From positions 248,001-312,000 of the forward strand of contig BAAIJX010000021.1 in the NCBI GenBank assembly GCA_054600435.1: a stretch of DNA of 64,000 bases. Reading direction: 5' to 3'. Numbering within the stretch: the stretch's first letter is position 1; every line of letters begins with the position of its first letter. This stretch comes from Neophaeotheca triangularis. Lineage: Eukaryota. Shown piece after piece: positions 6,619 to 63,549 of the stretch. The notes beneath the pieces are model-generated. The model searched no databases. It was not told the DNA's origin and saw only the letters and a program-made list of their open reading frames with translations. Both the position numbers and the translations under genes were made by a program.

Positions 6619-8454
6619 GATGGAGAAATCAGTGTGGTAGTGGATAGGGATTTGATAAGAAATAAGGAAGATGTTGAGGATATAGTTTTGGAGTAATAGA
6701 GCGGTGGATTAGAGAGCTCTTATAGGAGGCCGGTGCTCGTCACTAAACCAAACCATAAAAATTGTGTTGACGGTATTTGCGCCTTAACGTGTATATGAAG
6801 CCATTCGTTATGGACTGTTCGTGACGGGAAAGCCCCATCTATTGATTCAGTAGTGACAGTATGTCTGTTCACGTTAGCAATTCAGCACACATTGGAGTGT
6901 TGGATCAGAAAGTCTTCCTGATCAGAAGACGAGTATAAGGTGCGTGTGGAGTTGACCGTGGATAAAGTGACATGCCAGGTCCCCGTCAATCAAAGCAATA
7001 TGTGTTGATTTTCCGTCAACTCGAAAAGAACAGCATGCAATCTTAACGACACGGCTGATGCTCGCGCTGGTAGTACCTATGGCTTTACCGGTAGCGGTTT
7101 GTTAAATTGACGACCAAACCCGGCAAACAAGCGAGGCAAAGGTGACTGTCCGTCTCCATAGCAAGCACAGTCGATCCAGGTACGCATGGCTCCAGGCATA
7201 CCTTACTGTCGATGATTATCTAGACTAGGCGAGCGATAGAAAGGACCGGTGAGGGTCAGAGTTTCGGCACCTGGAAGTCTTACTAATTTGGCTGTATTCA
7301 TGGCGATGTCAGTTGATAGTACTATGTGTGTATACCTCTACTTACCAATAGTCCACGGGTCGTCGTTTGTCAGAGCAATCGGCTTATCGCAGTCAACGAT
7401 AAGGTCGTGCTATATGCGCCCACCGCCGACGCTCTAGACAGGGGCAGGCGATTCTTGTATTCATGTGCGGTGGTAGTATATAGGAGAGGCCCGTCTACTC
7501 GTAATCACTAACCTACTTTACCTGTACTGTACCTATAACTATAACTATGTTAGAGCCAGTCTGACTAAACGTCAAGCCAAGATGAACAAAGTCGGCACCG
7601 TTGCTGGCGGTCAGTTCGGCCGAGCGGGAGGAGACGGTGGACATGGAGGGAGCGCAGATGCGGCAGCAGATTGGGCAATGTCGAGTGTGAGTGCAGTTTT
7701 CAGTAGTACTACCAATATTAAATGTGCCTCCTAACGTTAAGGTATTATTACCTTCCGGCTCTCGGCGAGATTCAAATGGAACACACACCCGGACGGTAAT
7801 AAAATACATCCACTTTCCACTTTCCCTCGGCCCGTTACAGGAACGAACGAACGTCACTGGAGCGTGCCCAGGTGACGGTGACGGTGACGGCGGGGGAGGT
7901 GAAGTGAGGCCTCACTCCACCAGAAGGAAGCAACACCAGAAGCAGCAGCACCCCGCACGCACCAGGAAGAGACGGCCTTTGCCTACCTACAGTACTGCTA
8001 GTACTACTAGTTAGTACCGTTGCTACCTTACCTTACCTTACCTGCCCTTACTACCTCCCTCCTACACACACTCCCGGACTTGAGTGAGAGAGCCTTTCGA
8101 CAAGACGTCCCGTCACCTCCGACATCACCAACATCACCTCACTTCACATCACATCACATCACCCCCACCATCATCGGCCAAAACCGAGCACACGACGGGC
8201 TGCCCTGAGCCACCACAAACATCCGTGTCGTGAAAGCTTTCGCCGACAATTTGCCCTCCTTCAGCCCCACCGTGACCGACAGCAGACGTACCTCCATACC
8301 CACAGCCTTCCTCCAGGAGCTTTGTCGTAGAGCTTCTTCACTTTTTACTACTCATATCCAACAAGAGCTGGAACAAGGCGGACCCCATCCACCCATCTAT
8401 CGCAGCAGAATCTCGCTTTCAAACAACCCGCCCGCCCCCAGCGTTTCGCCCACC

Positions 8455-10001
8455 ATGGGAACTGTTGGAGAAACTGTCAAGCTGGATGTCCCTCTCCAAG
8501 AGCCCGAGTATGCGCCAGCCGGCGAGAGGACGACAAAGTCACCACAGGGAGACTTTATGAGGCCAGCAGCGCGAACGCGGGCGAGCTCTGGTGCTAGGAC
8601 TAATGGTGTAGGTGTACAGGTCGAAGATACTCGGATATGCGTTGTTATGGTCGGATTGCCGGCGAGAGGAAAGAGCTTGATTGCACAAAAAGGTGGGTGA
8701 CACGACTGAGCCAATGCCAGCGGGGTGAATGCAAAAGCTGACTCGGAAAACTAGTTGTTCGATACCTTGGCTGGTTAAGCATTACCGCCAAATGCTTCAA
8801 TGTTGGAAACTACCGCCGTACCAACACTCCCCAGCCCACAGCCTCCTTCTTCGACAAGGGCAATGCCGAAGGCGAACGGTTACGGAAAGCAGCGGCCGAG
8901 GCCGCAGTCGCAGATATGGTCAAATGGTTTCAAAGCCCCGATCATCTCATTGCTATCCTCGACGCCACCAACAGCACCAAGGATAGGAGGAGATGGATCA
9001 AAGATCGTTGCGACAAGGAAGGCATAGAAACGCTGTTCGTCGAGAGCAAGTGTGACAACGAAGAAATCATTATGAGCAATATCATGGAAGTCAAGACTAC
9101 ATCTCCTGACTACCAAGGCCTTGACCCGGAGGAGGCAGCAAAGGACTTCCGGGACCGGATACGCATGTACGAGCGGGTATACGAAACGCTCGACGAAGAC
9201 GAACAAGACCTCACCTATTGCAAGCTCATCGATGTCGGCAGCCAAGTCATTATCAACCGCCTGCAAGACTATCTGCAATCCCGCGTCGTCTACTACCTCA
9301 TGAACCTACACATACGCCCTCGATCCATCTGGCTCTCCCGACACGGCGAAAGCATGTACAACCTCTCGGGACGTATCGGCGGTGATGCCGACATTTCGCC
9401 TCGTGGCGAAATGTACGCCAAAACCTTGCCAGATCTTGTGAGACAGTCGACCGGGGGCAACGTTCCGCTCACCGTCTGGACGTCAACGTTGAAACGCACA
9501 GCGCAGACTGCACGCCACCTCGAGTTCGAAAAGCTGTCGTGGAAAGCGCTCGACGAGCTCGATTCCGGTGTTTGCGACGGTCTGACCTACGGTGAAATCG
9601 AAAAGCAATACCCTCAAGACTTCAAAGCCCGTGACGAGGATAAGTACAACTACCGTTACCTCGGAGGTGAAAGCTACCGCGACGTTGTCATTCGACTCGA
9701 GCCCATCATCATGGAGCTTGAGCGGAGTGAAAACATCCTCATCATCACCCATCAAGCCGTGCTTCGGTGCATCTATGCTTACTTTATGGGCAGCACGCAG
9801 GAGCGGAGTCCTTGGATGGAAGTGCCGTTGCATTGCCTTATCAAGCTGACACCGCGGGCCTACAAGACCGAGGAGGAGAGATTGGTCGCCGACGTTCCGG
9901 CCGTGAGCACGTGGCGTGAGAAGGGAAGCGCAGCTGTGCACGCCGATACTCCGGATGCGTCACGGATGGGGAGCCCCATGCTGAAGGGCCAAAGCAAGTG
10001 A
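8455..10001 (+). CDS. FBP26: 6-phosphofructo-2-kinase/fructose-2,6-bisphosphatase (2 exons; intron 8693-8754)
   Basis: Exon 1 has the P-loop VMVGLPARGKS. The intron GTGGGT..CTGAC..TAG joins it to VVRYLGWLSITAKCFNVGNYRR. Also ILDATN and the histidine-phosphatase motif RHGES with its catalytic His. Confidence 0.93.
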
Positions 10002-16786: not shown

Positions 16787-18448
16787 TTACGCCTTGAAGG
16801 TCTTGTTGACTTTGGCATCCTGAGAAGCGTCGACGGTGAAATTGGTCGTGCCAAGGTCCTTGTTGCCCGGCACAATGTAATTCTTCGTCTTGGGAAGGTT
16901 GTCCACGAATGTCTGATCGACGTTGAGGGTATCCTTGACAACTTGCTGAGGCGTCAGTCCCAACCACTGGCTTGCGCTGATGTCACTGTATCGCGGAGCC
17001 TGGAGGATTTCCATGTACACGACGGGCTCAGAACCCGTGTTCTCCACGTAGTGCGAGTCGGCCACTGGAACATAGCCGACATCTCCCTCTTGGAAATCGA
17101 ATGTGCGCGAGGCCGAGGGACCTTCGAAGACGGTCACACGACCCTGGCCACGTAGGAAGAAGTTCCACTCATCAGAGGTCAGGTGCCAGTGAATCTCGCG
17201 CATCGCACCCGGCTCAATGGTGAAAAGGCCCATGCTGTAGTTGTTGGCAATCGGGAACGTGGTGGGGTCAACAAGCTTGACTGAACCACCGGGTACCATA
17301 AGAGGTTCTTGAGCAGAAAGATGGTATGCCATTGACTCGTTGAGAGGCATCTCGCCAGCAGGACCCATGGCTTGCTGACGAGCCTCTTCGAGGGTGAGAT
17401 CGTCGCGCGTGCCGGTGAAAATGTACCTCTCATCCTGAGGGATGTTGTCGAATGCACTGACGTCGGTCTGGAAGTTCTTGGCCAAAACCTCTTTCGGGTT
17501 GCGCAAGAAGAGCTCGCTGACGAGATCGGTACCATCTTCGGAGAAAGTACCTTGGTTGAAGACCAGAAGAAATTCAACGCCATCAGGCGTGGCTTGAATA
17601 TTGTGGGGGACGCCAGCGGGGAAGAACCAGAGGTCGCCAGCAACGACATCGTCCACGAAAGTCTGACCGTTCTGGTTGACGGCAGAGATCCGGGCGCCAC
17701 CGGTCATAATGTAAGCCCACTCGTTGGCCGAGTGCCAGTGAAGTTCCCTGTAGGCGTTGGGTCCAAGTCTCATATCGACGCCCGCCATCGCCTGAGCAAC
17801 TGGCATCTGCTCGACGTTCTGCTGCCGAGCCCAACCAGATTGCATCCCGCCAGTGCCTGGCCTTGCGCTCGAAAGCCCCATGGGCCATTTGGCGTTGGGT
17901 ACGTCTCCGGAATCGGTACCAGGGCGGGCAAACAGGTCGCTGTTTTGCCTGTCGATTGCTCGGTTTCCTAAGATGCATTAGCTTTAAAGCCCGTATTGAT
18001 TCTCGAAGCACCTGTACTAACTCGGTCCAGGATCGGTTGCACCCTCGTTGCCACGAATGGGCTGCGGGTTCTCAGACTCGGTGAAGTCAAGGTACAGTCC
18101 CAAGTCTGGATCTTCCTTTTGGCCATCGACCAACTCATAGTCTCCCACGTACTGCTCAGAGTCCCCTGTCTGAAGAGGCTCCCCGCCGAGCTCTATGGGT
18201 GTGGCATCAGAGCCTTGGTTGCCCAACAAATTATCGCCGTAGATGCTGCCTTCCGCACCAGGTGGAGGGACGGGCTCGTACTTGATAGCGGAGTTGTCGA
18301 TCTGCGGCCCGTTCGGAAGGCCCTTAATTTGCCTCTTGCGGATGACCTCTTCACCACTACGGGAACGGGTAGGAGCCGGGGCTGACAGGACAGTCACCAG
18401 CTGGGATGCTGCGAGGACGCTGCTGGCAAGGCTGAAAGTGTACTTCAT
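16787..18448 (-). CDS. oxdC: Secreted bicupin oxalate decarboxylase (intron 17968-18021)
   Basis: Signal peptide MKYTFSLASSVLAASQLVTVLSAP. Two Mn-binding cupin motifs (RELHWHSANEW...PH and REIHWHLTSDEW...SH) and the lid segment FSEDGT. The intron GTTAGT..CTAAT..TAG joins the two track ORFs in frame. Confidence 0.92.
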
Positions 18449-22277: not shown

Positions 22278-23391
22278 TCAGTGATATCCGTTCTGCCTGC
22301 CTCCGATGGCGCCCTTACCTTCCATGAAGTAAGGGTGCATCACTGCCTGCTTGGCGCTGATCCTGCCAGCCGGATCATACACCAACATGCTCTCCAAGAG
22401 ATCCAGCCCGTCCTCACCAAGCACCTTGTACCCGTCATTTGAGACTAACAGCTCCTCCGGTTTGCGAACCCACTTGGGGAAGCTGCTCTTGAAGTCTGGG
22501 AAGCTCGTCACACCAGGCCAGTCCTCCTCGGTCGGCGTACCCAACACTCTGAATATCTTGAAAATCTCGTCGATTTCGCTATCCCCGGGGAACAAGGGCT
22601 TGCGAGTCGCCATCTCCGCGAAGATGCAGCCAACAGACCACATATCGACGCCAGTAGAGTACTGTCGCCCTCCAAGGAGAATTTCGGGGGCACGGTACCA
22701 GAGAGTGACGACTTCGTGGGTGTAGGTTCGCAGCGGGACGCCGAAGGCGCGCGCAAGACCAAAATCGGCGAGCTTTAGGTTGCCTTCTTTGTCGATGAGA
22801 AGATTTTGTGGTTTGAGATCGCGGTGAAGGATGCGGTGGGCGTGGCAGTAGCGAACTCCCTGAAGGAGCTGGCTGGTGAAGCGCTTGACCTGCAAGGCTT
22901 TCGTTAATATTTATTTATCCTCCTGAGAAGTTTGCGCAGCACGTACCATGGCCTCTCCCAGCCCCAAATGACCAGCTCGGCCGTCCATGACACCATCTGG
23001 CAGAGGTTTTCCACGCCCACCCTGGCTGACCGGCAGCGCCTCCATGTACTTTTTGAGATCAAGATCGAGGTACTCGAAGACGAGGTAGAGCTTGTGGCCG
23101 TCGGCGTGGACGATGTCAAACAAGCGGACAATGTTCGGGTCGTTGGTTTCCTTGAGGAGAGAGATCTCGCGAATGGCTGTAGAGGGGACGCCCTCATCCT
23201 CGGCTTCAAGACGGATCTTCTTTAGGGCGACGACGCGGTGGTCTGGGGTTGTGAGATCGCGGGCTTTGTAGACAACGCCGTAAGTGCCTGTGAGACATCA
23301 ATTAGCCAACAGCCTCGGGAGAGAACGATCATTCTGTGCAAGATTTGAACATACCCTCCCCAATCTTCTCCATCTTCTGGTAGTTCTCCAT
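22278..23391 (-). CDS. CDC28: Cyclin-dependent kinase 1 (Cdc2/Cdc28/NimX) (introns 23288-23354, 22890-22946)
   Basis: Spliced [61 protein letters not shown] and GDSEID. Confidence 0.98.
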
Positions 23392-30035: not shown

Positions 30036-31365
30036 CTAGTAACCAAGGTCGCTCGTAGTCACGTCTTCAATGAAATGCTTCTCCCGATTAGCCCTGGTAA
30101 ACCACAAGAACCAGGGGACGACGTAAGTCTTGATCGTATGACCAAGCCAACCGGCGTCGGAGACGGTTTTGACGACGCTCTTGGATTCCTCGAAGGCGGC
30201 CTCTATGCGACCTCGCCGCAATTTCTCATATGCATCGAAAGCTTCCTTCATGGTATTTGGTTTGCCCTTCTCCATCCATCTAGCAAGGCAGCGTGAGAAT
30301 AGAACGGTGTCTTCAAACACGATGCCGGTGCTTTCACCCTGGGGGGGCATAGCGTGCTAAACGGGGATTGTCAGTACACCCAAGTTTGTGACCCGCACAT
30401 GCCAAACTTACAGCTGCATCCCCAAGAAGCATGGTGCGGTTTGTGGCCCACTTGCCGAACTTGGACAGCGTGAAGACGGGCCAGAGGAAGAAGTCTTCAG
30501 CCTTCTTGATCAGAGGCTCAATACACTCAATCTTTGCATCCCCGAAGCGCTCCAGAATATCTGCACGCGTCTTGTCGGCATCCTTACCAGCAGCTTTCCA
30601 CCCGTCTCTTGACCCGATCTCCGGAACCTGCATCAACGCTCCTACGTAAACGGAATTCTTTGAGGACGAATGATAACTGGTCAAAAGCATGCCCCTCCTC
30701 GCGAAGTTGATGGCTGTGCACTGAAAATGTACGCTGAAGTCCGGCTCAATGGGGGCGAAGGAGAAAGCGTTGCAGACACCCGAGTACGTCTCTTGACGGT
30801 CTGGGTCAACGTGTTTCAGTCGAGTAACCGAGTGAATGCCGTCGCAGCCCATGAGCAAGTCAGCCGTAGCTGAGCCACCATCTTCGAACTTTATAGTCAC
30901 GTTATCGTCCGTCTCGTCGATGTCCGTAGTCCGCTTGCCGCACGTGAGAGTGATGTTCTCGTGCTGCTCCACGGCAGCCAACACGCCCTTTAATGCATCA
31001 CCTCGGGTGATTCGCAAAGCCTTGTACGGCGGATTTCCGATTCCTTTGCCTTCAGGCCCTTGGAAACTGGACTCTGCGAGCTTGGTGCTGTAGATATCGA
31101 AGACCTCGAGGTAGTCAATGGTCATGCCATAGTCGCGCTCGCGGATGATTGGCAGCGCGCCGAGGTGGTCGAGCAAGCGGAGAGCATTAGGTGTGAGGTT
31201 GACGGCACCGCCTACCGTGGCTGGCTCCGGGCGGATCTCAAAGATCTGAATGCGTGGGATTTGACCCTGTGGTGCGAACTTGGTGAGAGCGAGGGCGGTC
31301 GTCAAGCCGGCGATGCCTCCGCCAAGGATGATGACGTTCAAGCCGTCTGGGGATGCTGGCGCCAT
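30036..31365 (-). CDS. Group A FAD-dependent monooxygenase, salicylate hydroxylase-like (intron 30357-30411)
   Basis: GGGIAG Rossmann motif, GCDGIHS (DG motif) and spliced LLGDAA/HAMPPQG (GD motif). Confidence 0.92.
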
Positions 31366-38930: not shown

Positions 38931-40386
38931 TTAACCAACATATGCGTTTCTTCCCCCAACCGCCAGCGTCATCAGTTCCGGCTGGCCGCTAAAAACGGCT
39001 CCTTCCTGCCCCTCAGCACCGTCGGGTGTCACGTCGTCATATGGGAAGGCATACCCTTTGCCGTCGAGGTTGGTAGCATGGACGATGCGGGAGTAGTGCT
39101 ATTCGAACCCAGCTTGTTAGTAACAGCATTACGAAGCTGGATCGAAAGGTTTGAACTTACGTTTGTCACGGGATTGGTGTAGTATTGCGCAGATCTCACG
39201 TCGTTGGGTAGGTTGTCTCCCAGAAGCAGAGTGCTACGGTTGAAAGCGGCAGCAAGGCGAGGGATGATGGCGTTGGCGGCGGCGTTGGACCCCGTGGCGA
39301 AAGGACCCGTGCTGCAGGAGAAAATGTCCCTGGCAGTAGGCTTTGGGAAGATGCCGTTGGGGCCGAAGTTGAGGTTACCGGCGCTACCAACACGGCCTCG
39401 AACGTTGCCAAAGGACGCTTGGGTGTTGATTGTTAGATTCTGGGTGGCGTAGCGCGAGTAGACGGTGTTGATGTAGTCGCGGTAGTAGGTTTCGAACCAG
39501 GAGGGGTTGAGTAAAATGCCGGAATTCGGGCTCAGTGCTCGCAGGGGCTGTCCGTTTGGGCCGTTGACGATTAACGAGCTCCATCTCCTGCCGTCTCTGG
39601 CGGTTTGCTGTCGAAGACCTTCGCAAACGGCTTGGAGGCCGTTTTCTGGTAGGCCTGAGACGTGTTGCGTCCTGCCATTGGTCTCGCGGAGGGTCAGCGA
39701 CACGGGTAAACTTACAAAGTCGACGTAGCTGATGTTGGCAAAGACTTGGAAGGAGTTGAAAGTGAATTCGGCGAAGCCAAAATTGATGTTGACGTTGGGG
39801 TCGGCTGGGTTGAACACTGAGGGCTCGACGAGACCCGGACCGGGGTTAAGCAGGAATGTCAACTCCCTGCCAACAGAAAACCAGATGCGGCCGCCGGCAA
39901 TGCGAGGAATCGTAGCCGTGACGGTGTTTCCGGGACGTCCAAGTGGAATGGCAATGTTCGCACCGATAGGCTGGCCCGTTGAAGAGGGCGATGACGGATA
40001 GTATGGGGTCCTCGCATCGGACCTCATGAGAATCAACGCGTTGTTGTTGTCGATGGCCTGACCGGCTAGATCACGAAATGTTAGCCTGAGGTGACAAGTA
40101 GGGACCGCTATGAAGATCTCTTACTGATGTACGCAAAGACTGTGTTGGAATCCGTCTGATTTTGTAAAGCTATGCGAAGGGTATTGGGGGTTGCGGCGAT
40201 TGTGAGCGGCTCCTGCTGTTCAATGGCCGCTGCCGGCGCCCCATAAGCACTGGTCGAGGTATCCATAGGGGGAGGCTGTGATGTATTTTGTTGCTGCCGT
40301 TGTTGTTGTAGCTGCTGATTACCGTCTACTACAGGTTTCTTCCTGAAGATGCGCCGGATCCTGTCCAACAAAGGACTGGAAGGCAT
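38931..40386 (-). CDS. GH64 beta-1,3-glucanase (introns 40066-40124, 39099-39160)
   Basis: Spliced FAYI/TGQAID, GGRIWFS, LVEPS, FAEFTFN..FANISYVDF, RLAAAFNRS and TN/HYSRIVH..GYAFPYDDV. Confidence 0.9.
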
Positions 40387-43213: not shown

Positions 43214-44914
43214 ATGGCGACTCTGGTCCACGACGCCCCTTCGGCGACCCAGCCGGCCGCCCAGCCAGTCTCAAACCATCCCTTCACATGCAACACCTGC
43301 CAGGTTGCCTTCCGTTCTAGCGATCTACAGCGCACTCACATGCAGTCCGACTGGCACCGCTATAACCTCAAGCGTCGTGTTGCCTCTCTTCCTCCGCTGG
43401 CCTCGGACGTTTTTGCAGAGAAAGTGCTGGCCAACAAAGCTACAGCGGCCGCCACAGAAGCTAAGGCCAGGTTCGAGAAGCGATGTGAGGCGTGTGAGAA
43501 GACCTTTTACAGCGAGGGAGCATACTCGAATCATCTGGGCAGCCATAAGCACCGAATGCTAGTTTCGAAGATGCCGGCCGGTACGGATACCGAGAGCATG
43601 GCCGATTCGTCTTTCAGCTTGGGCGAGCCGATGGAGGTGGCAAGCACCGCAAGCACAATCAGCACAGCAGACCCGCCTGCCGAAACAGAATTCGAACAGG
43701 TAGTCGAGGGGATGAAGCAGACGAGTGTGAACGGGAACGCTGAGCAGGCTCCTGGTCGCCCAGGCCGACCTACTCCAATGTCTGCTGCTCAGCAGAAAGA
43801 GCACCCCTTGTCGGCTAGCTCAACGGAACCAAGCCCTGCGGCGGGAGAAAAGGAGGACATGGAGGAAGATGAGAACTACGAGCACAAGGCTGATCTCAAG
43901 CAATGTCTCTTCTGCAACTACATGTCGCCGACCGTTGACCTCAACACCAATCACATGTCCAGGCAGCACGGCTTCTTCATCCCAGAGAAGGAGTATCTTG
44001 TCGACTTGTCCGGTTTACTCACATATCTACACGAGACTATCACAGTCCTCCACCAGTGCCTTTTCTGCCATAAGCAGATCCACACAGCTTCTGGCACACA
44101 GACACACATGCGGGACAGGGGACACTGCATGATTGCGTACAGTACCGAGGAAGAGCAAATGGACGTTGGCGAATTCTACGACTTCCGTAGTACATACTCG
44201 GACGACTCCGGCTCAGACACCGAGGGCGAAGAGGACGAAGGTGGTGTTGCATTGGGAGCCAAGCGAGCAGCCAAAACAACCTACCAAAACGAGGCGGGCG
44301 AAGACGTCGACATGCCCGAGGGTGATGACGAGGGCTGGGAATCGGACTCTTCAGATTCGTCGGTACCGACCGACGAAATTACATCGGTACCAGTCGACCA
44401 CTCGGCCCGCCACCACTCGCACCACGACTCTCGCAAACACAAGAACAGCGACGGTTTTCACAGCCACGCCCACCACACACCTTCAGCTGTGTACCACGAC
44501 GGAAATGAGCTCCATCTTCCCTCAGGACGCACAGCCGGCCACCGCAATCTGCGCACATACTACCGCCAGAACCTGCGAAACTACCCCACGCCAGAAGAGC
44601 GCGCCAACCAGCGTTTCATCGAAGACAGTCGTCACGATTCCGACGCCGACGACGACGACGATGCTTCAGACACCAACACCGAGCGTGCCGTGCAGGTCAA
44701 CAACCCTCGCGGCCGCGGTAGGGACCAGCGTATTGTTACGAGAGCTAACGGTGGTCTCGGTATGCTGGGTGTGAGTGAGGCGAAGAAGAAGGAGGCCCGC
44801 AACATGGAGAAGAAGGAGTTGATTAAGGCACAGAGGGCTGAGAACAGGTACAAGGCGGGCAACGAGAGGAGGAATAACCACCAGAAGCATTACCGTGACC
44901 CATTGCTGCAGTAG
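43214..44914 (+). CDS. REI1: Cytoplasmic pre-60S maturation factor Rei1/Reh1 (C2H2 zinc fingers)
   Basis: FTCNTC..HMQSDWHRYNLKRRVASLPP, HGFFIPEKEYL, LHLPSG..GHR..YYRQ and terminal QKHYRDPLLQ. Confidence 0.93.
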   Translation: MATLVHDAPSATQPAAQPVSNHPFTCNTCQVAFRSSDLQRTHMQSDWHRYNLKRRVASLPPLASDVFAEKVLANKATAAATEAKARFEKRCEACEKTFYSEGAYSNHLGSHKHRMLVSKMPAGTDTESMADSSFSLGEPMEVASTASTISTADPPAETEFEQVVEGMKQTSVNGNAEQAPGRPGRPTPMSAAQQKEHPLSASSTEPSPAAGEKEDMEEDENYEHKADLKQCLFCNYMSPTVDLNTNHMSRQHGFFIPEKEYLVDLSGLLTYLHETITVLHQCLFCHKQIHTASGTQTHMRDRGHCMIAYSTEEEQMDVGEFYDFRSTYSDDSGSDTEGEEDEGGVALGAKRAAKTTYQNEAGEDVDMPEGDDEGWESDSSDSSVPTDEITSVPVDHSARHHSHHDSRKHKNSDGFHSHAHHTPSAVYHDGNELHLPSGRTAGHRNLRTYYRQNLRNYPTPEERANQRFIEDSRHDSDADDDDDASDTNTERAVQVNNPRGRGRDQRIVTRANGGLGMLGVSEAKKKEARNMEKKELIKAQRAENRYKAGNERRNNHQKHYRDPLLQ

Positions 44915-56739: not shown

Positions 56740-57020
56740 CGTTGCGGAGATCAGGAGGGGAAAATTGAGGTGGACGGTTCGAAGGTGTCGTCGCTATATT
56801 ACGATTTGGAGATGTAAAGGCGTGTGATGAGAGGACGGATGATGACTTGTGGAAATATTGAATCCATGTTATGTCGCTCTTCTGCTTCAGAGACGAAGCG
56901 CGGAAAATTCCGTCCTCCGAAACCGCCCGCTGTTGTCTATGTACCTCAGTACTATTAGTATTGAACGCTACAATAACATCACTTCGCCTTCCCAGTGACT
57001 GCCGTTCTTTCGGACTCAAC

Positions 57021-58196
57021 ATGTCGCGCCTTGCGCAAAGCAAGCCTACGCCGGCTCCGCGGAAAGAAGCGCGGATTGGAGGACTAGGTGACACGCAAGA
57101 CGGTGAGCTCGAACCAAGCGCATGCGGAATCCGCTCACTTCATACTAACACGCTCACAGAGATATGTCCGGTCTGCAAGAGCAGCAGATACCTTAACGCC
57201 AGCCTTCGCTTCCTCGTAAATCCAGAATGCTACCACAAAATGTGTGAGTCGTGCGTCGACCGCATCTTCTCCCACGGCCCCGCGCAATGTCCAATCTCCG
57301 GCTGCCCAAGGACACTTAGGAAGCACAGATTCCGTGAGCAAACATTCGAGGATATCAAGGTAGAGCGAGAAGTGGACATACGGCGGCGGATAGCGGCGGT
57401 GTTCAACAGGCGCGAGGACGACTTTGAGGATTTGAGGGCTTACAACGACTATCTGAACGAAGTGGAGGATATCACGTTCAACCTCGTCAACGGTATAGAC
57501 GTGGAGGAGACGGAGAAACGGTTCGAGGCATACAAGAAGGCTAATGCGGACGATATTGCTGAGAACACCGAACTGGCCAAGAAGGAGAACCTTTCATACT
57601 CGAGTCTTCAGAAGCAGGAGCGCGAGCAGGCACGTCTCCGGAGGGAGGCTGCACGGCGTGAAGAGGAGGAAGATCGTCGCGAAGCGGAAGAAAACAGGAG
57701 AGACGTGCTTGCGCGGTTGGCTTCTGGTCAGGATGCTGATGCGATTGCGAAACACGGTCAACAGGTTCAGCTCAAGAGGCGCATGGACAGGCAAGAGCAG
57801 GCGGAGCGGCAACAAAGGCTCAAGAATGCATCTGCGGCAAGCAACGGCGCTGCACCGCTCATCAAAGGTCTGAAGCGTCGCAAGGATGCCGGGCCCGAGG
57901 CCCCTATCGATCCGTTTGGTGGCCTTTCATTCGAGGGCCGCAAGCACTTCAATTTGCTGGACGACTATGTTTGGCAGGGTATTCGGGAGACCAAGGGTGC
58001 GGTCAAAAGTACAGCTGGCGGGTATGATGTGCGAGACTTTACGAATAGAGCGCTTACGGAGGCCTTTGGTGGTCTCGGCATCTTTCTCGCCGACGACGTG
58101 CATGAGGGCGAGAAAGCAGGGCAGGACGCTTTAAGTGCTGGTACTGCGAGGGCTGAATTCGGAGCTGCAGACGTGAAGATGCTGGACGCAGCCTAA
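57021..58196 (+). CDS. TFB3: TFIIH/CAK assembly factor MAT1 (in-frame intron 57103-57159)
   Basis: RING CPVCKSSRYLN..CYHKMCESCVDRIF..CP..C, FEDIKVEREVDIR and YNDYLNEVEDI. Confidence 0.95.
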   Translation: MSRLAQSKPTPAPRKEARIGGLGDTQDGELEPSACGIRSLHTNTLTEICPVCKSSRYLNASLRFLVNPECYHKMCESCVDRIFSHGPAQCPISGCPRTLRKHRFREQTFEDIKVEREVDIRRRIAAVFNRREDDFEDLRAYNDYLNEVEDITFNLVNGIDVEETEKRFEAYKKANADDIAENTELAKKENLSYSSLQKQEREQARLRREAARREEEEDRREAEENRRDVLARLASGQDADAIAKHGQQVQLKRRMDRQEQAERQQRLKNASAASNGAAPLIKGLKRRKDAGPEAPIDPFGGLSFEGRKHFNLLDDYVWQGIRETKGAVKSTAGGYDVRDFTNRALTEAFGGLGIFLADDVHEGEKAGQDALSAGTARAEFGAADVKMLDAA

Positions 58197-58830: not shown

Positions 58831-60975
58831 ATGTCGTTGATACCACTTAGCGACTCGCGCGAAGTCGTGCTGTATGTTAAACCACGCCGACTTGCTCGGT
58901 ACGGAAACACTAACAAGAGACTCAGTCGCCGCGGCAATGCCATTGTAATTTACGACCCGCATTCAGAAGAGCTCTCCGTTCGGGATGCGGCTGAATCGAC
59001 TGTGGACATCACCAACTGCCCTTACTGCCAGCGCCCACTACACGAGCCAGAATACCCCCCACGCGCCAGTGCCGACGAACAACATGGACGGCCGCTCGGT
59101 TCGGATCGCCCTTTTGTGGACCCCGAGTACTTTGCCATGCTCGCGGCGAGCCAGCGGAATTCACCATCTTCTTCAGCACCCGGCACGCCAGTTCGTCGAC
59201 ACGTCCAGCCAGCTCTTCGCTCAGGACGGTCCAGGGATGTCAGTGGTGCTGGTGGTCCACCTCCGAGCGGAGCCGAGTTTGTCGGGAGCGCTCCTTCCAC
59301 AACGAGTGGCAAAGGTATCAGCAGCAGCGCTTTCAGCCCCGGATACTTTGCCCAACATTTCTGCGAGGAGAAGGAGCTAGGTAGGGGCGGAAATGGAGTT
59401 GTGCTGCTTGTAGAGCATTATCTTGACGGCGTCTCTCTAGGTCATTTCGCCTGCAAGCGAATCCCAGTGGGCAACGATCATGAGTGGTTGAAGAAGGTCC
59501 TGGTAGAAGTTACGCTGTTGCAGAAGCTCCGCAACAAGAACCTTGTCCAGTACTACTTCGTATGGCTCGAAGACCACCAGCCGACTCGATTCGGTCCACC
59601 TGTTGCATGCCTATGGATCCTTCAGGAGTTCTGCAACGGAGGGGACCTACACACATACGTGACAGGGCCTGGGGAGAATACCTCAACAGCGGAGAAGCTC
59701 AAAAACCGCTACAGGAGGAAATCAAAGACCAGCCCCGAGCCTGCAAGAGACCTTCGTGGACCCAGCAAGCTCACTTTCGAGGAGATTTTCTCGTTCTTCC
59801 GAGACATCACTTCCGGACTTCATGAGCTGCACACAAAGGGATACATTCACCGCGATCTCAAACCATCGAACTGTCTACTACAACAAGATGGTGGAAGGAC
59901 CAAAATTCTCATTTCAGACTTCGGTGAAGTACAGGCTGCTGGTGCGAAAAGAGGTTCGACGGGCGCCACCGGCACGATAAGCTACTGCGCACCAGAAGTG
60001 CTCGCTCAAAACGCGATGGATGGAAGTTTCGGTGCTTTCACGACGAAATCGGACATCTTCTCGCTGGGGATGATCGTCTACTTCATGTGCTTTGGTCGGC
60101 TACCATATGCCTCCGCCGTGGAAGATGAAGACAACGAGGATCTCGACGAGTTGAGGGCGGAGATATCGGCTTGGGAAGGCTTCAACGAAGAGGCAAGAGC
60201 TCGGCAGGATCTACCCGAGAGACTGTACAAATACCTCAAGCGCTTACTCAGTGTCGATCCCAACGAACGCCCCAGTACCGAAGAGATACTGGCTAGCATC
60301 AAAGGGGGTGCTGCGCTAGGAAACGAAGGAGAAGCCTACCCTACTCGCATCTCGAACATAGACTCCCCTCTTCGTCGTCCATCTACTCAGGGCCGTCAGC
60401 ATTCTTCCGGAACAATGAGTAGGCCAGGTTTGTCTTCGTTGGGGAGAACAGCGTCATCTTCAGCAGACACTACTAGGACCGTCATCGCACGCTCCACGAG
60501 CCCAGCAAAACGTCGCGACAGCAGTCAGGCTACCAGCCAGAGCCGACCTCAAAGTCCACTGGAATCCTCTATTATACTCCGCAATCGTAATGCAGAGTTT
60601 TCTCCAAGCGACGGCACAATCCCACCATCGGCTCAGCAAGAGAGTGCGCGACTCATGCTGCCACCCCCACCTACCCGACTGCTGGACACTGAGTACTCTC
60701 TTCCTCTGGTCGTTAGGGTGGTGCTCCTGGCGCTGAAGCTGGTCTCTGTGTCGCTGCCATGTACCCCTTACGCTCCGAATCCCTGGATCGGATACCCTCT
60801 GCTATTGCTGGCGCTGCTGGACGTCGACGACGGTCAATGGGCGCCGGGAGGTATGTGGGCCAGCGGGGACTTGAGGTTTTCATCTCTGGTCCTGGTCGTT
60901 CATATTGCCGTGGTGTTGGGGGCCGTCAAAGGCGACGGGCTCTGCTGTGGGGGAATGGGAGTGGGTGAGCATTGA
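58831..60975 (+). CDS. IKS1: IKS1-family Ser/Thr protein kinase with hydrophobic C-terminal segments (in-frame intron 58872-58925)
   Basis: CPYC, FVDPEYF, LGRGGNGVV, FACKRIPVG, HRDLKPSN, ISDFGE, GATGTISYCAPE and KSDIFSLG. Confidence 0.88.
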   Translation: MSLIPLSDSREVVLYVKPRRLARYGNTNKRLSRRGNAIVIYDPHSEELSVRDAAESTVDITNCPYCQRPLHEPEYPPRASADEQHGRPLGSDRPFVDPEYFAMLAASQRNSPSSSAPGTPVRRHVQPALRSGRSRDVSGAGGPPPSGAEFVGSAPSTTSGKGISSSAFSPGYFAQHFCEEKELGRGGNGVVLLVEHYLDGVSLGHFACKRIPVGNDHEWLKKVLVEVTLLQKLRNKNLVQYYFVWLEDHQPTRFGPPVACLWILQEFCNGGDLHTYVTGPGENTSTAEKLKNRYRRKSKTSPEPARDLRGPSKLTFEEIFSFFRDITSGLHELHTKGYIHRDLKPSNCLLQQDGGRTKILISDFGEVQAAGAKRGSTGATGTISYCAPEVLAQNAMDGSFGAFTTKSDIFSLGMIVYFMCFGRLPYASAVEDEDNEDLDELRAEISAWEGFNEEARARQDLPERLYKYLKRLLSVDPNERPSTEEILASIKGGAALGNEGEAYPTRISNIDSPLRRPSTQGRQHSSGTMSRPGLSSLGRTASSSADTTRTVIARSTSPAKRRDSSQATSQSRPQSPLESSIILRNRNAEFSPSDGTIPPSAQQESARLMLPPPPTRLLDTEYSLPLVVRVVLLALKLVSVSLPCTPYAPNPWIGYPLLLLALLDVDDGQWAPGGMWASGDLRFSSLVLVVHIAVVLGAVKGDGLCCGGMGVGEH

Positions 60976-61747
60976 GGTAGACAGACGTCTAGCGGTCAAT
61001 GAGCGCTGAAAGGTTTGCGGGTCGGTGGGGTTCATCATGTCTCTATTACTGCTCCCGGCCAATCATGTTACTCTTTACAGGGACCGTCAGTATACGATAG
61101 GCTCTGCTGAGGGGATGGAATGGGCGTGATTGCGCAGTGAGCTAGGCGGACTTAGGAGATAGGTCCTCGCCGTAGTCCCCGTCGGATGGTATCAAATCAC
61201 ACTGCACCAGCTATCACATCCCAATTGTCTTTCATTGTAGTCACTGACGACAATCATTTCCCTCTTACTATGCCAAGCCATATTGAGTCCTGTTCATGGT
61301 CGCCGAGGAATAGGAGAGACAAGGGAAGAAAAGTCGAAAAAGCCCCAAGCTGACGTCCTGTATACTGAAGAGCTCCCTCAATCCCGGCGTGATGAGACGA
61401 GCACGAACGTATAGTGGCTAGCAAGAGACCCCCTACCAGCCACAGGTCTCCCACCCTTTAGAGGATCATGCCTAGCATCCACACTTTGCGCGGCGCCGCC
61501 ACGAAGCGGCGCGCTCATGCAGTAGTAGGTTGTGAACTCACCAACTCAGCTTAACCGACCTATGATTATGATTATGCTTATGAACTGATTTGATTGGCCA
61601 ACGTGGTCGGCGAATTCGTCTTCCAGCCTGAATTGTAGAGGTCGTCGTCGCCAAGTCAGCCCCAAAGGGCAACATTTTGCAGGCTTCGAGCCGCAAGTAT
61701 CTGGTGATATTGAATGGTTTTATATCATTTTACAATGTGTTGACCGA

Positions 61748-61809
61748 TCAGATCAGATCAAGACCTTGATGATTAGGTCGGTGTTGGGTCAGATCAGAAT
61801 CAAGACCTT
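61748..61809. repeat. Imperfect direct repeat TCAGATCAG(A)ATCAAGACCTT x2 (possible DNA-transposon end remnant)
   Basis: Copies at 61748-61767 and 61789-61809. The transposon interpretation is inference only. Confidence 0.55.
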
Positions 61810-61992
61810 ATAACATGAGGCTCCAGGTGTTCTAATTCCAATGACCATCAAGGTGAACACTTGTCACCATAGAAGTATTCGGGACTAGCCGATTCGGCTG
61901 TTCGATCCCCTCCTGAGTTTTCTGTGAGAGCTCTTGATGATGTATGTAATATATGCAGTTTTGCATGACCTCAGTCATCGATTACACACCTC

Positions 61993-62120
61993 GGTCGGTA
62001 CGTCTAGTCTAGAATCTACTTCCAAATATGCATCCACTAACACTCATCCAGGTTAGCTCAGTTGGTTAGAGCGTGGTGCTAATAACGCCAAGGTCGCGAG
62101 TTCGACCCTCGTACTGACCA
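61993..62120 (+). tRNA. tRNA-Ile(AAU), apparently split in the acceptor stem (exon 1 61993-61997, exon 2 62052-62120)
   Basis: Joined sequence GGTCG+GTTAGCTCAGTTGGTTAGAGCGTGGTGCTAATAACGCCAAGGTCGCGAGTTCGACCCTCGTACTGACCA is 74 nt. Stems: acceptor GGTCGGT/ACTGACC, D GCTC/GAGC, anticodon TGGTG/CGCCA with loop CTAATAA (anticodon AAT), T GCGAG/CTCGT. A and B boxes are intact. Confidence 0.9.
61998..62051 (+). other. Spliceosomal-type (U2, GT-AG) intron inside the tRNA-Ile acceptor stem
   Basis: GTACGT donor at 61998, CTAAC branch at 62037-62041, CAG acceptor at 62049-62051, 54 nt long. Same signals and size class as the mRNA introns in this window. Confidence 0.82.
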
Positions 62121-62129
62121 TTTCTTTTT
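62121..62129 (+). terminator. RNA polymerase III terminator (T-tract)
   Basis: TTTCTTTTT immediately follows the discriminator base of the tRNA. Confidence 0.8.
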
Positions 62130-62907
62130 GCTCTCTTTCAACTGCCCTGCTGCCCTCTTTGGCTGCCATTGAGATCAGTCTCGTTACAAGGAGAGTCTCG
62201 ATCTCTATCGCTCCTTGAGTGTGATTCTGGTACTTGATCAGGCCAGGGCGCGCGTCAAGTTTTTTTGCGAAATGCTTATAAACACACGAAAATCCAAGAA
62301 TTTTCAGTGTACAACAGAACATTTTGAGTGAAGGAAGGGAGGAGGTTCCAGACTTGGGTGATGCCTAAGGTAACGTACATCTGGTATTGCCGGTATTTGT
62401 CGGGGGCTACGATGCCCGTGGCAGTCCCAACATCCTCCAAGCCAAGCGGTCAGACTAGCCTAGTCAACAATTCTCGTATTCCCTCCTTCGCTTGACTGTG
62501 GACGAGATATTGTTCTTCTGTTCATGAGATATTATGGCTGGATATATGTAAGTTCGATGGCACTACTTTCCAGTGTTCTCTGGGAATGTCGACCGGCGAC
62601 GGGATTTGGTTGCCGAGACAGCGATGTATGAGCTGTCTGGGTAGCTTAGGGGTTTCCTGACATGGCAGCGCGTTTTCTCATTGCGAAGCGGGACCAGCTC
62701 ACTTGAAATACAGACTCGAGCCAAGGCAGCTGATTGTCCTATCTTTCATTATCACTTGAGCCGTGTACCGCCCGATACTAAGATATACCCTTTTTTCGTC
62801 GATTGCCGACAGCAACCACCATTGAACCAATTTAATCACCCCACTCGCCCGCCCCTCTCCAGCACATACACCTCCAAACCCTAGCACCACCCCAAGGCCC
62901 CCAACCC

Positions 62908-63549
62908 TCACCCCAAACACTTCAGAATCTCCGGCTGATCGATCAAAACGAGATACCTCACGAGCCGCTCGCCAAACGCCTGCCTCAGCCGCTCCCAAGG
63001 CTCATCGGCCCTCTCAACCACCCTCCTCAAGATCTGCACGCAACACTCCATAACCCTGCCCTCGGCAGCCGCAAACGTAATCCCAACCCCTTCTCTCCCT
63101 CTTCCCCCATGAGCATGCATAAACCGCAACCACGACCCCAACTTGCACCAATCCGGGTGTAGACCTAGATGGCATCTCCATCAGCTACAACAGACAAAAG
63201 CGTGAGCCATCCTCTTTTTTTTTTTTTTTTTATCCAAGACTGTGTGAAAGGGAAACGAACCCGTTAGAGCCACTTCGACTGCACCGGGCACAAGCCAGCG
63301 CTTGAAGGTTCGTGCAAAGAGGAGCAAGCGGCTGGCGTCGCAGTTTAGGACGTCAAAGTGGAAAGTGTTGTTGCCGAAGAAGATTTTGTAGCTGCGGTCG
63401 CGGAGTTCGGTGCAGGTTGCGCTGATAGGGGGAAGAGGGAAGACGGGGATTGTGGGGTGGATGATGAGGGGGGAGGGGGCGAGGAGGACGGCGCGCAGGA
63501 TTGTGTCTTGGAGTTCGGTGGGGAGGCGGCTGAGGGGGGAGTTTTCCAT
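62908..63549 (-). CDS. Hypothetical protein with F-box-like N-terminus (intron 63165-63260)
   Basis: MENSPLSRLPTELQDTIL..ISATCTELRDRSYKIFFGNNTF. The intron GTTCGT..CTGAT..TAG (containing a poly-A run) joins in frame to GLHPDWCKLGSWLRF...*. Confidence 0.7.

Follow-up and report, generated by a model that had tools for sequence, protein, structure and literature searches.

A putative spliceosomal-type intron in the acceptor stem of a fungal nuclear tRNA-Ile(AAU) gene

The locus described here raises the question of whether a nuclear tRNA gene can be interrupted by an intron of the type that the spliceosome removes, and whether a gene interrupted in this way may still work. According to textbooks, spliceosomal introns are not related to those of tRNAs, and each class is handled by a machinery of its own. 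The same separation is made in introductory passages of a 2025 paper, where the two appear as unrelated classes with separate machineries (PMC12530127).

The window, that is, the whole 64-kb stretch of DNA that was analyzed, is about 53% GC and is an ordinary fungal chromosome region with housekeeping genes. The tRNA-Ile lies about 1 kb after an IKS1-like kinase gene, within a 1.7-kb spacer, and a minus-strand gene apparently ends toward it from the other side of the spacer. A 103-codon antisense ORF (62053-62364, minus strand) extends over the tRNA body and its 3' flank and is most likely spurious. The parts of the locus and two of its neighbors are as follows:

56862-58193: MAT1, a housekeeping neighbor in the window
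58831-60972: IKS1-like kinase gene, upstream of the tRNA-Ile
61947-61955, plus strand: TATA-like, AT-only element TAATATATG, 38-46 nt 5' of exon 1
61993-61997, plus strand: putative exon 1, tRNA positions 1-5 (GGTCG), which pairs with 62115-62119 and has G5-U68 as its sole wobble
61998-62051, plus strand: insert of 54 nt, a putative spliceosomal-type intron with donor, branch and acceptor signals that were read directly
61998-62003, plus strand: donor GTACGT of the insert, directly 3' of GGTCG
62037-62041, plus strand: branch CTAAC of the insert, with A62040 as the branch A, 11 nt from the insert end
62049-62051, plus strand: acceptor CAG of the insert, 7 nt after CTAAC
62052-62120, plus strand: putative exon 2, tRNA positions 6-73, with the D arm, the anticodon arm (AAT), the T arm, the 3' acceptor strand and discriminator A
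62121-62129, plus strand: T-tract TTTCTTTTT, with T5 at 62125-62129, a trailer that resembles a Pol III terminator

Direct reading of the sequence bore out the coordinates given in an earlier note on this DNA, including that of the branch A. When the DNA is read contiguously, the first four of the seven bases before tRNA position 8 are unpaired with the 3' strand. The tRNA body outside the 5' acceptor strand is undamaged, with all other stems paired, and no base of the body or of the insert signals has decayed. ARAGORN reported zero tRNA genes in the whole 64-kb window, and zero in the unspliced locus. After 61998-62051 had been excised in the script, the same program found a 74-nt tRNA-Ile(aat) with a complete cloverleaf, the acceptor stem of which is 7 bp long and paired throughout, with one G-U at 5:68; it was only with this segment removed that the complete cloverleaf was obtained. 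The minimum free energy (MFE) fold of the spliced RNA is also the cloverleaf, at -25.1 kcal/mol. In the unspliced DNA, the Rfam tRNA model RF00005 matched 62051-62120 at 43.8 bits, against a gathering score of 29, and its alignment deletes acceptor positions 4-7 and marks their four partners as unpaired. Excision at GT/AG was said in the earlier note to give a 74-nt tRNA-Ile with a 7-bp stem and one G-U, and this product was reproduced with ARAGORN; the comparison of spliced with unspliced sequence, which the note had proposed for tRNAscan-SE/Infernal, was made with the same program. The note also expected standard finders to miss the gene: ARAGORN does, and the Rfam model sees a damaged copy only. 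Taken together, these results support the restoration of the tRNA-Ile identity by removal of the insert at GT/AG; that this removal takes place by splicing is what we infer.

The insert was compared with introns from the same window. A crude screen for GT...AG segments that join two long ORFs, combined with Pfam matches on the flanking frames, gave a reference set of six Pfam-supported introns within the 64 kb:

8693-8754, plus strand: intron of a 6-phosphofructo-2-kinase gene, 62 nt, with the less common donor GTGGGT
17968-18021, minus strand: intron of a bicupin (oxalate-decarboxylase-like) gene, 54 nt
22890-22946, minus strand: intron of a CDK-like kinase gene, 57 nt, with donor GTACGT
30357-30411: Pfam-supported intron of an FAD-binding gene
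40066-40124: Pfam-supported intron of a GH64 glucanase gene
44771-44833: Pfam-supported intron of a zinc-finger gene

The 62-nt intron splits the 6-phosphofructo-2-kinase gene (8209-9998, plus strand) at position 32 of the Pfam profile. The six introns are 54-63 nt long and have a GC fraction of 0.41-0.55, GTAAGT-like donors, branches of the CTAAC or CTGAC type, and YAG ends. The tRNA insert (54 nt, GC 0.41, GTACGT, CTAAC, CAG) lies inside this range in length and composition, and its signals agree with the donor (GTRNGT-like), the branch (CTRAY, between a few and about 20 nt from the YAG) and the YAG end of U2-type introns of filamentous ascomycetes. As far as length, GC and signals go, the insert is indistinguishable from the six introns. 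Two likenesses pointed out earlier were found again: the donor said to equal that of CDC28 intron 2 occurs as GTACGT in the intron of the CDK-like kinase gene, and the length said to equal that of the oxdC intron is that of the 54-nt intron in the bicupin gene. No run of four or more T is present inside the insert. This lack was considered as an adaptation to Pol III, an idea that was dropped; none of the six reference introns has such a run either, and the lack is therefore uninformative.

To what extent chance could produce this arrangement was estimated from the window itself, with all of its 127,580 strand-positions taken as mock junctions. On this basis, AG stands directly before a junction with a frequency of 0.067, and a CTRAY-type branch lies 6-25 nt from the end with a frequency of 0.105. 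For a pairing 5-mer with GT after it, located 40-120 nt upstream and with wobble permitted, the frequency is 0.014; it falls to 0.00063 when the 5-mer is followed by a GTRNGY donor within the same distance. As the product of these frequencies, the joint chance per junction is about 1e-4 for the loose donor and 4.5e-6 for the strict one. The strict donor with a pairing 5-mer that belongs to the insert is the only one in the 64-kb window. The architecture is thus real and statistically unlikely, and it reads as a spliceosomal-type intron within a tRNA acceptor stem. We put at about 0.5 the rough probability that the locus represents a living nuclear gene for tRNA-Ile(AAU), from a fungus resembling filamentous ascomycetes, with a U2-type GT-AG intron between positions 5 and 6.

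Both borders of the insert carry a direct repeat of 3 bp, GGT, at 61997-61999 and 62051-62053. Because of this repeat, four cut registers give the same product, and only the 5/6 register is GT-AG; the interruption can just as well be placed at tRNA position 7/8. In appearance, the repeat resembles the short duplications that arise from DNA insertion or break repair. In the unspliced RNA, exon 1 and the first two intron bases can form a full 7-bp acceptor stem. In its MFE fold, 61993-62002 pairs with 62110-62119 in a 10-bp helix, and this helix with the tRNA 3' end can sequester the 5' splice site. Since the unspliced RNA can form the full acceptor stem, RNase P is not obviously blocked before splicing, and the claim of the earlier note that the spliceosome must act before RNase P is not compelled. 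Splicing would nevertheless be placed before RNase P, because the 5' exon would afterwards be only 5 nt long.

The transcription of exon 1 deserves separate attention. The 128,000 strand-positions of the window contain 23 copies of TATAT[AG] and 17 of TATA[AT]A, so that the share of 20-nt spans expected to include a TATA-like hexamer is well below 1%. The TATA-like element is a candidate start-site selector for a transcript that would include exon 1. It supports GGTCG as the probable original 5' end of the transcription unit, not its present use. Between 61963 and 62051 there is no run of four or more T, and Pol III could therefore read through. A T4 run is present at 61959-61962, after the TATA-like box and ahead of exon 1; with a later start it would be harmless, and it would be a weak Pol III stop if the start lay further upstream.

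The A box of the tRNA-Ile begins at 62054, 61 nt from exon 1. At TFIIIC-directed promoters, the A box normally follows the Pol III start site at a distance of about 18-20 nt. A start of this type would therefore fall near 62036-62040, inside the intron, and exon 1 would be left out of the transcript. This spacing, which the earlier note did not weigh, is the main difficulty for reading the locus as a living gene. TATA-directed starts are found in fission-yeast Pol III genes. A TATA-directed start, or transcription by Pol II, would solve the promoter problem. The 5' part of the intron also holds TAGTCTAGAATC at 62005-62016, which agrees with six of the nine specified positions of the A-box consensus TRGCNNAGTGG and sits where an A box would be relative to a start just before exon 1. 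A match of this grade has a rough chance of about 40% per 54-nt stretch, and is offered only as a thought.

Relatives of the neighboring gene provided a comparison set of 47 fungal metagenome loci that encode IKS1 relatives with 46-64% identity and amount to 438,811 nt; at least 1.3 kb of downstream sequence is available in 30 of the 47. ARAGORN found a tRNA in none of the 47 loci, Rfam found none in the 438,811 nt, and blastn-short with the tRNA body gave zero matches against the same loci. There is thus no orthologue among these relatives, and the comparison is uninformative on conservation rather than negative. Two other small RNAs were seen near IKS1 relatives: a fungal U3 snoRNA in locus L043 (128-348, plus strand), which scores 121.3 bits, and, in locus L047 (973-1069, minus strand), a box C/D snoRNA that belongs to A. 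fumigatus family Afu_335 and scores 69.2 bits.

Several explanations other than splicing have to be weighed. The tRNA could be a 5'-truncated relic, with GGTCG, GT, CTAAC and AG upstream of it by coincidence. The match in exon 1 consists of just 5 nt, and very many windows were scanned, so that rare coincidences are expected somewhere; however, the joint probability of 1e-4 to 4.5e-6 per junction, the TATA-like box at the right distance from GGTCG, the perfectly kept tRNA body and the terminator make this explanation very unlikely. Slightly less likely still is an artefact or a product that is never spliced, which might be a 54-nt mis-join, an RNA used with its insert, or a 5' end repaired by a 3'-5' polymerase. 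The full acceptor stem that the unspliced RNA can form would agree with such a product. All sampled words of 61700-62500 occur in two sequencing runs from two studies, which counts only weakly against a mis-join, as both runs are marked as possible sources; in two further runs the shares of these words are 0.27 and 0.20, and the RNA runs contain about 0.05 of the sampled words, roughly the share expected from the conserved tRNA body by itself. Donor, branch and acceptor signals would not be present at a mis-join, and, to our knowledge, repair of tRNA 5' ends by a 3'-5' polymerase is limited to mitochondria of other lineages and to positions 1-3. The least probable of these readings is that the tRNA splicing endonuclease cuts the insert as a bulge-helix-bulge (BHB) intron, of the kind found in archaea, Cyanidioschyzon and nucleomorphs, and that the GT-AG borders are incidental. 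Introns of the BHB type do exist in the acceptor stems of archaeal tRNAs, but the insert lies at position 5/6 instead of 37/38, and an explicit search of the insert borders found no bulge-helix-bulge, a motif in which two 3-nt bulges surround a 4-bp helix and further helices flank them. All four cut registers that give the same product were covered, with bulge sizes from 2 to 4 nt and central helices from 3 to 5 bp, and every candidate had a central helix of just 3 bp, flanked by at most one pair on the inner side and none on the outer. A BHB or TSEN-type intron was rejected on these grounds. Introns of groups I and II were rejected as well: the insert is only 54 nt long, where such introns measure hundreds of nt, and contains no ribozyme core by Rfam, which, at E up to 10, gave the tRNA as the only real match in 61000-63000. 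A T-loop-like string near 61901-61912, considered as an upstream tRNA relic, has no Rfam support at the same threshold and was set aside.

The main rival to a living, spliced gene, for which the odds are about even, is an inactivated copy. In this explanation, a recent insertion that was derived from an intron or resembled an introner killed a real tRNA-Ile gene, which has not yet decayed; the insertion may have come about by intron transposition, as a DNA-level introner or through break repair. Pol III would then start inside the insert and make a product that lacks positions 1-5, and other Ile(AAT) copies would carry the load. The GGT repeat flanks the insert as a target-site or repair duplication would, exon 1 and the A box are 61 nt apart, and, with a tRNA in none of the 47 related IKS1 loci, there is no sign of an old origin of the arrangement. 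Body and signals would also still be perfect after a fresh insertion. On the other hand, the absence of any decay in body or signals can be read in favor of a gene in use, and the insert has a regular intron length. Neither the insert nor its flanks is repeated in the 64-kb window or in the 438,811 nt of the 47 related loci, which together are a very small sample of a genome. Moreover, if the insert had been reverse-spliced into a pre-tRNA, the same RNA would by definition be a splicing substrate. On balance, we consider an inactivated copy unlikely, and yet far more plausible than coincidence, artefact or a BHB intron.

In the preferred reading, that of a working tRNA-Ile gene whose intron is removed by the spliceosome (again roughly an even chance), transcription would start near 61975-61990, positioned by the TATA-like box at 61947-61955. 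The transcript would comprise a short leader, the 5-nt exon 1, the 54-nt intron and exon 2, and would end at the T-tract. The polymerase is probably Pol III, as for the intron-bearing U6 genes of fungi, and Pol II may also be considered. The spliceosome would recognize GTACGT, CTAAC (A62040) and CAG and join G61997 to G62052, most likely while the leader is still attached. RNase P cleavage, 3' trimming, CCA addition and deamination of A34 to I34 would then yield an ordinary tRNA-Ile. The fuller statement, that this nuclear tRNA gene works and that its RNA matures only with the help of the spliceosome, from a precursor that is probably made by Pol III with a start upstream of exon 1, is more tentative and is held at a little under even odds. 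The spliceosomal interpretation proposed in the earlier note stands at the sequence level, where all intron signals are present, the tRNA is restored, no BHB motif can be drawn and no second copy of the insert was found in the DNA compared; its order of RNase P and spliceosome is the part that does not necessarily follow.

Introns of the mRNA type are already familiar from other structured RNAs of fungi. According to a review, canonical introns are present in fungi in the genes for rRNA and for the snRNAs U6 (transcribed by Pol III), U1, U2 and U5; for most such ncRNA introns, expression and splicing still await validation (PMC5855946). The U6 introns described there come from Schizosaccharomyces pombe and from numerous other fungi (Tani and Ohshima 1989, 1991; Canzler et al. 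2016; as cited in PMC5855946). In the features given in those passages, the fungal U6 introns resemble the tRNA-Ile insert: they are short, have canonical signals, are otherwise unconserved, and sit in a small structured Pol III gene (PMC5855946). The tRNA-Ile differs from U6 in that its host molecule is a tRNA, for which no contact with the spliceosomal active site is known. Its intron is located upstream of the internal A box, which is thereby shifted 54 nt from the 5' end; U6 has no promoter problem of this kind. Furthermore, the tRNA-Ile case is a single locus, whereas U6 introns occur in many fungi.

A second parallel is provided by the U3 snoRNA, which, according to parts of another paper, has introns in most of the Pezizomycotina analyzed (PMC5832005). 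Like the tRNA-Ile insert, the U3 intron described there is of the spliceosomal type and interrupts a small structured ncRNA in its 5' part, in hosts from the same broad fungal group (PMC5832005). In those parts, U3 and U6 are named as the only small structured RNAs so far known to be often interrupted by introns; tRNAs, unlike the tRNA-Ile described here, are not among them (PMC5832005). The closest likeness in position is offered by disrupted tRNA genes. Archaeal acceptor-stem BHB introns and the disrupted tRNA genes of Cyanidioschyzon and nucleomorphs (PMC3978253) share with the tRNA-Ile an interrupted 5' acceptor strand, a gene that finders miss, and a stem that splicing must restore. In a review on this subject, spliceosomal introns come up for protein genes only (PMC3978253). 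The tRNA-Ile differs from the BHB systems in that no BHB can be drawn, the signals are of the U2 type, and the insert lies at 5/6 in a fungal host, whereas the tRNA introns known from fungi are at 37/38. The earlier note knew of no description of a spliceosomal intron in a tRNA acceptor stem; in agreement with this, a full-text literature search, with most subscription journals outside its scope, did not turn up any tRNA gene reported to contain a spliceosomal intron.

In sum, if the preferred reading is true, this tRNA would be the first for which a need for the spliceosome is known, its intron would be the first spliceosomal one in a tRNA, and the spliceosomal and tRNA intron classes would become linked. 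Introns of the mRNA type in structured or Pol III RNAs (U6, U3, U1, U2, U5, rRNA) would extend to the most abundant class of small RNA. The locus would also bear on the origin of introns, that is, on reverse splicing into abundant RNAs versus DNA insertion with short direct repeats. For the annotation of fungal genomes, it would mark a blind spot, in which tRNA finders systematically miss or mislabel genes of this kind.
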